Below, one piece after another: positions 5,944 to 6,240 of a stretch of 10,583 nt of DNA. Source of the DNA: Promethearchaeota archaeon (GTDB lineage Archaea; Asgardarchaeota; Lokiarchaeia; Sigyniarchaeales; SOKP01); NCBI GenBank assembly GCA_013375475.1, contig JABXKD010000057.1:14132-24714 (forward strand). The letters are read 5' to 3'. A program made the position numbers and the translations under genes. The notes under the pieces are model-generated. The model was not told the origin of the DNA, made no database searches, and saw only the letters and a list, made by a program, of their open reading frames with translations. Each line of letters starts with the position of its first letter. The first letter of the stretch is position 1.

Positions 5944-6240
5944 TATTGTTGCCTGCGCACCAACTCAAATTTATCACTTAATGGTAATACCATAAATCAA
6001 ATAAGTTCTCTCGTGCTAGGCGGTAATTTCTATGCCTTTTTGGGGCATAATCATGTCTGCATGCTGGGTCTGACTCCAATCTCATCGCACGGTAAAACCG
6101 TTAATTGCTAGATTAAGAGCCCATTTTTGATGCAGTAAATTGTTGATTAATAAATTCAGGATGTTTGCATAACTTTGCGCGCGTAATCACGATTATCATA
6201 CGCGTCCTCGAATATGCTAATGCTCCATCATCATTTTCCC
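5944..6240 (-). ncRNA. Three-hairpin H/ACA pseudouridylation guide RNA (or cluster of guide RNAs)
   Basis: No ORF, visibly GC-richer than flanks. Hairpin A: lower stem GCAUA/UAUGC (6217-6213/6171-6167), K-loop AUGA…GUGAUUA, ACA 6164-6162. Hairpin B: CUGCAU/AUGCAG (6135-6130/6062-6057), variant K-turn, ACA 6056-6054. Hairpin C: GCCU-A-GCAC/GUGC-GC-AGGC (6021-6013/5960-5951), K-turn UUGA/GUGAUAA, ACA 5949-5947. Confidence 0.8.

Follow-up and report, generated by a model that had tools for sequence, protein, structure and literature searches.

The stretch analysed here, called the window throughout, comprises 10,583 nucleotides (nt) of contig JABXKD010000057.1 (positions 14,132 to 24,714) of assembly GCA_013375475.1, from a Promethearchaeota archaeon of the Asgard order Sigyniarchaeales. 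Its gene content is archaeal and includes TFB, an archaeosine-tRNA transglycosylase-like protein, a Gar1-like open reading frame (ORF) and CbiMQO transport genes. A 402-nt spacer (5895–6296), with a plus-strand ORF of 156 aa on one side and a minus-strand gene for a cbiO-like ABC ATPase on the other, contains an H/ACA RNA unit on the minus strand, whose first hairpin is enclosed at its base by a kink turn (K-turn) with box C-like and box D-like strands. An initial annotation, made from the letters alone, had described this arrangement as a C/D-type terminal K-turn around an entire H/ACA hairpin and had proposed an RNA of dual identity. Our analysis asks how much of that description stands when homologues, RNA data and guide targets are considered.

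The 5′ (bulged, box C-like) strand of the K-turn (6224–6236) is made up of the canonical (C) stem AAAU (6236–6233), the bulge GAU (6232–6230), the sheared residues G6229 and A6228, U6227 at position 3b and GGA (6226–6224). Its 3′ (box D-like) strand (6152–6161) supplies UCC of the non-canonical (NC) stem (6161–6159), U6158 at position 3n, G6157 and A6156, and AUUU of the C stem (6155–6152). The C stem, the 3-nt bulge, the tandem sheared G·A/A·G pairs and the NC stem of a K-turn are thus all present, with the sheared pair formed by the second GA of AUGAUGAUGG, and together they enclose a complete H/ACA hairpin, ACA box included. The letters on the minus strand agree exactly with the pairing of 6236–6224 and 6161–6152 given in the initial annotation, and the C box AUGAUGA (6234–6228) and D box CUGA (6159–6156) lie where it had placed them. 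We rejected an alternative K-turn assignment in which the C stem opens with U·U (C·U in species with C at −1b) and the NC stem is mismatched after one pair, and which is absent from L013–L020 in the genus alignment. Folding programs based on energy, which ignore G·A pairs, detected no thermodynamic signal in the 85-nt unit (minimum free energy z-score 0.11; 103 of 200 shuffles fold at least as well) or in the 402-nt spacer (z = −0.60). The minimum free energy structure of the single 85-nt sequence is a different fold; its centroid contains GGA/UCC and both the lower stem (P1) and the upper stem (P2) of the hairpin.

BLAST searches with the spacer gave matches of 68–95% identity in 21 of the genus's 24 other genomes and none in 16 genomes from three other families of the order. 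When the first 100 nt of 20 genus sequences (19 distinct) were aligned with MAFFT, all four C-stem pairs were 100% paired, the pair next to the bulge being U–A in 11, U·G in 5 and C–G in 3, and four of the seven P2 pairs showed compensatory changes. RNAalifold recovered GGA/UCC, P1 and P2 unaided from this alignment; the C stem, of four A–U pairs, was not predicted.

A covariance model of the unit extended this picture. Of the 121 genomes in the order, 94 contain a full-length match; these are 92 of the 101 genomes in the same family (12 genera) and one of the 14 in a second family, against none of the five in two others. For a family alignment we combined 40 fetched matches, covering all genera and the weakest scores, with 31 loci; all 71 sequences could be fitted to the model, and the counts below use the 68 distinct rows, from 13 genera. 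Double-sided changes occur in all four pairs of the C stem (95.2% of cells paired) and in two of the three NC-stem pairs (99.5% paired), and compensatory changes occur in four of five pairs of P1 and six of seven of P2. This covariation was matched by none of 500 shuffles, and controls with slid registers paired at 18–43%. Swaps of the C stem can be read directly in raw sequences, as UUGAU/AUCAA (L078), CAAC/GUUG (L089) and AAUC/GAUU (L088), the last being a C stem from another Asgard family.

The K-turn core is even more constrained. G1b, A2b and A1n are each found in 68 of 68 rows and G2n in 64, the remaining four having A; an L7Ae-bound K-turn variant that fits A at 2n is described in PMC3985660. 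The bulge is 3 nt long in 67 of 68 rows, with the unpaired letters L2 and L3 being A in 65 and U in 67, respectively, and the near-invariance of these unpaired letters, as in box C, suggests recognition by a protein. Position 3b·3n is variable, with U·U in 25 of 68 rows. Because the core is invariant and both helices covary across the 68 sequences, we take the K-turn to be real. Loss of the motif in homologues had been named in the initial annotation as a ground for discarding it; in the homologues the motif is kept.

The enclosed element, H/ACA hairpin 1 (6162–6217, minus strand), is defined by covariation, its GA stem, its ACA spacing and its target pairing. It consists of the 5-bp P1 (6217–6213/6171–6167), the 5′ guide UCGAGG (6211–6206), P2 with the K-loop (6205–6179), the 3′ guide GCAA (6178–6175) and ACA (6164–6162), with AUGA (6199–6196) and GUGAUUA (6190–6184) forming the K-loop. 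Productive archaeal H/ACA folds have a GA stem of 10 layers and an ANA box 14–15 nt 3′ of the upper-stem closing pair, according to PMC4652768. In hairpin 1 the GA stem has exactly 10 layers, from A6205·C6179 to A6196·G6188, and ACA lies 14 nt past 6179. The closing pair of the upper stem is A–U in 11, G–U in 1 and unpaired in 7 of the 19 distinct genus rows. In the family alignment both A residues of the ANA box are invariant (68 of 68 each), the middle letter being C in 62, U in 4 and A in 2, and the pocket between the lower and upper stems is backed by covariation. At the level of sequence, hairpin 1 therefore carries every hallmark of an archaeal H/ACA module. The lower stem of about 8–9 bp with a free ANA tail or linker is not seen here: P1 has 5 bp followed by two unpaired nt, and the NC stem closes an internal loop around ACA.

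The archaeal 16S gene of the genome is on contig C222 and its archaeal large-subunit (LSU) gene is unassembled, so target scans used the LSU genes of congeners (about 3330 nt). The best ribosomal RNA (rRNA) site with canonical geometry, and the top match of the scan, is UUGC-UU-CCUCGA at LSU 2713 of one congener (G020), with 4 + 6 Watson–Crick pairs; it is present in four of four genus LSUs. The invariant letters of hairpin 1, UCGAGG and GCAA, coincide exactly with its predicted pairing partners. We count 5 nt from the target uridine downstream to the C that corresponds to yeast 5-methylcytidine 2870, and with numbering offsets that we presume to hold it would be E. coli 2496, yeast pseudouridine 2865 and P. 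abyssi pseudouridine 2588. The HgcG motif 1 consensus has a nearly identical pocket (cGAgGa/uGCGA, compared with UCGAGGA/GCAA here). In P. abyssi, Pab40 motif 1 modifies position 2588, a site that eukaryotes share (PMC2377435), and yeast pseudouridine 2865 is the snR46 site, in the peptidyl-transferase centre (PMC8307265, PMC5699541). Most likely, to judge from these pairings, hairpin 1 guides the peptidyl-transferase-centre pseudouridine equivalent to yeast 2865.

An earlier target scan was dropped; it had used the only 16S–23S operon assembled in the source genome (G000 contig C263:2265–6910), which looks bacterial. That operon has lower archaeal-model scores and bacterial-type 16S letters, and C263 is probably a contaminant contig. 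As a separate observation, positions 424–447 of the G020 LSU (L024) hold adjacent segments complementary to the 5′ strand of hairpin 3 (ACGAGAGAACU, 11 pairs) and to the 5′ strand of hairpin 1 (UUGGCAUAUUCG, 12 pairs including G·U); these paired complementarities may be due to chance. A domain I site was once predicted for Pab40 motif 2 and was reportedly found inactive.

The K-turn unit is not free-standing. In the genus alignment, conservation runs from an A/T block to about 310 nt past the invariant GGGA, ending after ...ACAAUAUAUGCUGAUUU. The A/T block, AAUAAAUUUUUUA (6262–6274, minus strand), is conserved in the genus and family alignments and is centred about 27 nt upstream of GGG (6240–6238); by its position it is likely an archaeal BRE/TATA promoter (TFB recognition element and TATA box) that would place the transcript start about 4 nt before the C stem. 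The probable start is the 5′ leader GGGA (6237–6240, minus strand), with G in 61, G in 67, G in 64 and A in 58 of 68 rows (alignment columns 1–4). The K-turn unit is hairpin 1 of a three-hairpin H/ACA small RNA (sRNA) of about 310 nt with a likely promoter of its own.

The RNA is present in metatranscriptome contigs. Those from four runs, each of a different study, cover 5939–6226, 6020–6227, 6007–6214 and 6007–6222. They are confined to 5939–6227, with the flanking genes uncovered and nothing upstream of 6240, although missing contigs at 6228–6240 and beyond 5939–6227 are not evidence of absence. Contigs bridge hairpins 1, 2 and 3 and are unbroken at 6152 (5939–6226, 6020–6227, 6111–6222). 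The separately processed species of about 85 nt for which the initial annotation suggested end mapping left no sign in these contigs, which continue into hairpins 2 and 3, although contigs by themselves do not prove a single molecule. In contigs from two studies (X3, X6), sequencing-adapter letters are found right at 6007, a position within the hairpin 3 5′ guide GAGAGAA; the shared fragment end may reflect cleavage, a reverse-transcription stop or chance.

Downstream of hairpin 1, H/ACA hairpin 2 (6054–6135, minus strand) has a lower stem P1, CUGCAU (6135–6130)/AUGCAG (6062–6057), that covaries (CUGCAU/AUGCAG compared with CCUG/CAGG), and ACA at 6056–6054. Its K-turn, identified by eye, is non-standard, with GC-GAU-GA-GAUU (6088–6078) opposite AAUC-[U/A]A-GC (6114–6107) on the minus strand; the G expected at position 2n is replaced by U or A, and 2b is C in L014 and L018. 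The hairpin is closed by clamp 2, in which UAAUCA (6144–6149) pairs with UGAUUA (6048–6053), directly after the ACA, and which has compensatory variants UAAUU/AAUUA (L084), GAAUCA/UGAUUC (L077) and GCCA/UGGC (L085). H/ACA hairpin 3 (5947–6021, minus strand), supported by the genus and family alignments, has the lower stem GCCUAG..CAC (6021–6013)/GUG..AGGC (5960–5951), the 5′ guide GAGAGAA (6012–6006), the 3′ guide GUUG (5964–5961), a K-turn with UUUGA (6001–5997) opposite GUGAU (5977–5973), and ACA at 5949–5947. Clamp 3, formed by UAUGC (5939–5943, minus strand) and GCAUA (6035–6031), varies to GCACA/UGUGC (L083), GGCAU/AUGCC (L048) and GCAUAGA/UCUAUGC (L093); RNA contig X1 extends to its last position, 5939, and UGAUUU (5938–5933), likely the RNA's 3′ end, follows.

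Hairpins 2 and 3 are accordingly closed beyond their ACA boxes by plain helices of 5–6 bp, and the closing helices in other families have wholly different letters, such as GGGUUGA/UCAACCC (L103) and GCGCCGG/CCGGCGC (L112). Because closing helices with compensatory changes also flank hairpins 2 and 3, clamping is a general design of this RNA, with the basal K-turn the first of three clamps. Two further pairings were noted in the same region. A small hairpin, AUGCC-CCAAAAA-GGCAU (6032–6048, minus strand), is deleted in 3 of 20 genus sequences (L018–L020); its 3′ arm shares positions with the 5′ strand of clamp 3, and AUGCC/GGCAU (6031–6048) and GCAUA/UAUGC (5939–5943) compete for one GCAU. Both have compensatory variants and may be alternative or sequential folds. 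The invariant GGG (6240–6238) could pair with an invariant CCC (6045–6043) just past clamp 2 on the minus strand, closing a three-way junction that holds the C stem and clamp 2 with linkers of 1–2 nt; neither triplet varies.

Canonical bipartite scans of rRNA gave nothing convincing for hairpins 2 and 3, and the targets named here are tentative. The 3′ strand ACCCAGC of hairpin 2 pairs with LSU GCUGGGU beside two uridines at about E. coli 2585/2586 (own count), a site predicted as the target of Afu4/Pf7 motif 2 (PMC2377435). However, only ACCC is invariant, and for the 5′ guide to pair, a bulge is needed and a predicted helix must open. In L007, hairpin 2 matches small-subunit (SSU) rRNA perfectly over 11 nt, but this match is not conserved among species and was taken as chance. 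For hairpin 3, GUU(A/G) fits either UAAC of helix 69 and GAGAGA fits UCUCUU just 3′ of it; the target uridine is ambiguous, with an unpaired loop of 5–6 nt remaining.

Rfam does not recognize this RNA. Scanning the window at the gathering threshold returned no relevant match, and scanning 5700–6500 at E ≤ 10 returned five weak, chance-level matches, with HgcG (RF00064) absent. The HgcG model matched none of 25 genomes of the same family. Among 151 genomes of the phylum, it picked up full-length RNAs with three hairpins in 13, none of them in that family; all fell short of the gathering cut-off of 77 bits, scoring at most 51.9. Our K-turn covariance model matches motif 1 in 7 of the 12 HgcG-like loci returned; by eye, a basal K-turn is seen in four of the 12, with unrelated C stems, UAGC/GCUG (L103, L105, L106) and UUGC/GCAA (L112). 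Motif 1 itself is lacking in two (L108, L113). Judged from these loci, the basal K-turn is old enough to be present in several Asgard families and is not universal. The shared pockets and architecture suggest that the RNA is probably related to HgcG/Pab40/Pf7/Afu4 and has diverged from them. When the whole genome was scanned with a descriptor for further H/ACA units clamped by a K-turn, 11 matches came back, none of them convincing, from an over-rigid pattern that missed the known locus.

The 156-aa ORF (5424–5894, plus strand) has a weak match to MAPKK1_Int (roadblock/LC7-like; E = 8.9e-4, under the cut-off), a eukaryote-like signature protein. The Gar1-like ORF (3488–3736, plus strand; 82 aa) matches Pfam Gar1 at E = 1.1e-5, under the curated cut-off. 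It lies directly upstream of TFB and 2.4 kb from the H/ACA RNA gene.

With reasonable confidence, we read the locus as a genuine K-turn closing the base of hairpin 1 of a three-hairpin H/ACA sRNA related to HgcG/Pab40/Pf7/Afu4, where it acts as a clamp with a second site for L7Ae. The genome encodes Cbf5, Nop10, two L7Ae-family proteins and Nop5. L7Ae would occupy the basal K-turn besides the apical K-loop, holding a terminal helix that is weak (four A–U pairs plus 3 bp) and tying the extreme 5′ end of the transcript to the linker between hairpins 1 and 2. The clamp would steady the short (5 bp), A/U-rich P1, present the ACA box in its internal loop to the PUA domain of Cbf5 and shield the 5′ end in the way that C/D RNAs are shielded by their terminal C/D motifs. 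Together, the three closing helices would make up a spine, with the three guide modules projecting from it and hairpin 1 directing Cbf5 to the LSU uridine in UUGC-UU-CCUCGA. A precedent for stabilization comes from U85CD constructs, in which a terminal C/D core makes a large RNA inserted into it metabolically stable (PMC4041459).

Several points weigh against this reading. L7Ae binding at the basal K-turn, the 2:1 stoichiometry and end protection are what we infer from sequence. The family alignment was fitted to the covariance model, which biases its pair counts towards the structure. The target score of hairpin 1 is modest, being equalled somewhere in LSU plus SSU by 14 of 300 composition-shuffled guides. 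RNA contigs end at 6214–6227, short of the 5′ strand of the C stem (6233–6236), with a gap given as 6–13 nt; presence of that strand in the mature RNA is what we infer from the promoter position and conservation, and the gap may come from 5′-terminal loss in library making and k-mer assembly. Motif 1 occurs without a basal K-turn in 6 of the 12 HgcG-like loci (L102, L104, L107, L109, L110 and L111, from four other Asgard families). Because such copies exist and the 5′ region of the HgcG consensus is unstructured, the K-turn is dispensable for guide function, and the 5–6-bp lower stems of L102 and L104, which lack it, weaken the idea that a short P1 needs a clamp. To our knowledge, no solved archaeal H/ACA ribonucleoprotein (RNP) has its ACA box held between two helices, and an ACA in an internal loop may clash with PUA binding.

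Other explanations differ mainly in what they make of the K-turn pattern. That AUGAUGA and CUGA are an accidental resemblance in an A/T-rich spacer would suit single-sequence folds no better than shuffles (z = 0.11), but conservation and compensatory change over 13 genera and three further families refute this idea and leave it next to no chance. A protein-free helix would pair its strands like clamps 2 and 3, with the tandem G·A pairs making just a stable internal loop and L7Ae staying unbound. This idea gains from plain helices doing the same job in hairpins 2 and 3 and from L7Ae binding at the K-turn being a prediction. What is conserved, however, is a K-turn pattern (fixed 3-nt bulge, invariant G·A/A·G, near-invariant unpaired L2 and L3) that a plain helix would not require, and the four A–U pairs past the bulge, omitted by RNAalifold, would hardly be stable alone; we regard such a helix as unlikely. 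Equally improbable in our view is an assembly or processing checkpoint, in which the K-turn helix and binding of ACA by Cbf5 are mutually exclusive, and L7Ae marks or protects the nascent RNA, or sets a cleavage boundary, before being displaced. The position of ACA between P1 and the NC stem, only 0–1 nt from the NC stem in some genera (ACA-CUU-GA forms), in a geometry not known from solved H/ACA RNPs, would fit such a switch. Pab21 is also found in vivo with and without its C/D part (PMC2377435). Against a checkpoint, RNA contigs run unbroken through 6152 from hairpin 1 into hairpins 2 and 3, and no alternative partner is seen for either K-turn strand.

The dual identity proposed in the initial annotation is where the nested architecture and its interpretation part. 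A terminal K-turn with box C (RUGAUGA) and box D (CUGA) does surround the hairpin and is conserved, close to the box C/D consensus (AUGA[U/A/C]GG and C[N]GA, with a G–C pair after 3b·3n in 55 of 68 rows); Nop5 is encoded in the genome, and composite C/D–H/ACA RNAs such as U85 exist in eukaryotes. Recruitment of both Nop5–fibrillarin and Cbf5 through the basal K-turn and the K-loop could then yield a 2′-O-methylation guide or a C/D-type rRNA chaperone, and ACAUC upstream of D complements LSU GAUGU beside the hairpin 1 target, over 5 nt that overlap the pseudouridylation guide duplex. The reading of the unit as C-D′-C′-D fails on its spacers, however: these are 25 nt (C–D′) and 24 nt (C′–D) long, compared with guides of 10–12 nt in archaeal C/D sRNAs (PMC7994747), and both are locked in covarying H/ACA stems. 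The apical D′/C′ pair is a K-loop normal for archaeal H/ACA hairpins, and the two letters at positions 6–7 upstream of box D differ freely from one species to the next (family alignment columns 131–132). The rRNA search suggested for the D-box guide came back empty, as neither GAUGUUUGCAU nor its degenerate forms matched genus LSUs or the archaeal SSU of the genome; no conserved single-stranded C/D guide with a target was found among rRNAs, the search leaving out tRNAs and other RNAs. U·U at 3b·3n, strongly kept in functional C/D motifs, is present in only 25 of 68 rows. The K-turn is probably not the mark of a second, methylation-guiding function; guiding by the C/D part is unlikely even with Nop5 encoded, as expected in an archaeon, and conceivably able to bind the motif, and the dual-function composite as a whole seems to us quite unlikely. 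Of the two options offered for the terminal motif, protection of the RNA end by L7Ae is the one we favour, as a prediction, and recruitment of Nop5–fibrillarin as a methylation guide is unsupported.

Further-reaching still would be that the H/ACA module of several Asgard lineages gained a bona fide C/D core with two L7Ae per hairpin, the basal L7Ae–K-turn contacting the PUA/ACA region of Cbf5 in a new RNP architecture or recruiting Nop5, as a prokaryotic forerunner or convergent counterpart of nested eukaryotic scaRNAs (small RNAs specific to Cajal bodies). We consider this rather unlikely. In the reading that we prefer, a K-turn clamp on an H/ACA sRNA, the basal K-turn is an unusual extra on a known kind of RNA. 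In the archaeal H/ACA guide RNAs that have been solved or described, as far as found, each hairpin contains a single K-turn or K-loop, and ACA is in a free tail or linker. In the RNA studied here, a second K-turn closes an internal loop around the ACA box of hairpin 1, and plain helices do so in hairpins 2 and 3. A full-text literature search, in which 'H/ACA' is not indexed as one word and subscription journals are largely missing, found no paper on Asgard H/ACA sRNAs or on a basal K-turn of an H/ACA hairpin. If L7Ae binds the basal K-turn, the RNA would be a natural example of an H/ACA module with two L7Ae sites, would test the freedom of the Cbf5 PUA domain around the ACA box, and would place nested C/D-type and H/ACA-type elements in the archaeal group closest to eukaryotes. 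For annotation, RNAs of about 300 nt in this family escape Rfam, its HgcG model included.

Among known systems, the closest in guide content is HgcG/Pab40/Pf7/Afu4 (Rfam RF00064), which likewise has three H/ACA hairpins per transcript. Its motif 1 pocket is near-identical to that of hairpin 1, implying the same LSU site, and its motif 3 consensus has the same 3′ guide, UGUUA, as hairpin 3; in Pab40, the sites of action are 2588 for motif 1 and 2016, in helix 69, for motif 3 (PMC2377435). In contrast to the RNA described here, the HgcG consensus has no K-turn or closing helix around motif 1, its 5′ region being unpaired, its lower stem has 8 bp rather than 5 bp, and its hairpin 3 5′ guide is GGUUAG rather than GAGAGAA. 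The RF00064 model misses our locus even at E ≤ 10, so that the Rfam threshold is failed.

The basal K-turn itself resembles the terminal C/D K-turn of archaeal C/D sRNAs in its terminal stem, 3-nt bulge, sheared G·A pairs and C/D-like letters, and in being an expected L7Ae site at RNA ends. It differs in enclosing a 56-nt H/ACA hairpin rather than two guides of 10–12 nt, with no conserved methylation guide or target found here. Of the composite RNAs cited as precedents in the initial annotation, Pab21/sR9 of Pyrococcus is also an archaeal RNA with an H/ACA motif and C/D boxes, and exists in two forms, with and without the C/D part. It is, however, tandem rather than nested, as Pab21 comes first on the transcript, at its 5′ end, and is followed by the C/D sRNA (PMC4652768, PMC2377435). 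The eukaryotic scaRNA U85 fares better and is a fair architectural analogy. U85 has working methylation and pseudouridylation guides. Like the present RNA, it carries an H/ACA part inside a terminal C/D core, and that core aids processing and stability (PMC4041459). In U85 the enclosed part is a full two-hairpin H/ACA domain, whereas here only a single hairpin out of three lies inside, and the C/D part shows no guide. U85 is thus the nearest architectural analogue, with no homology implied.

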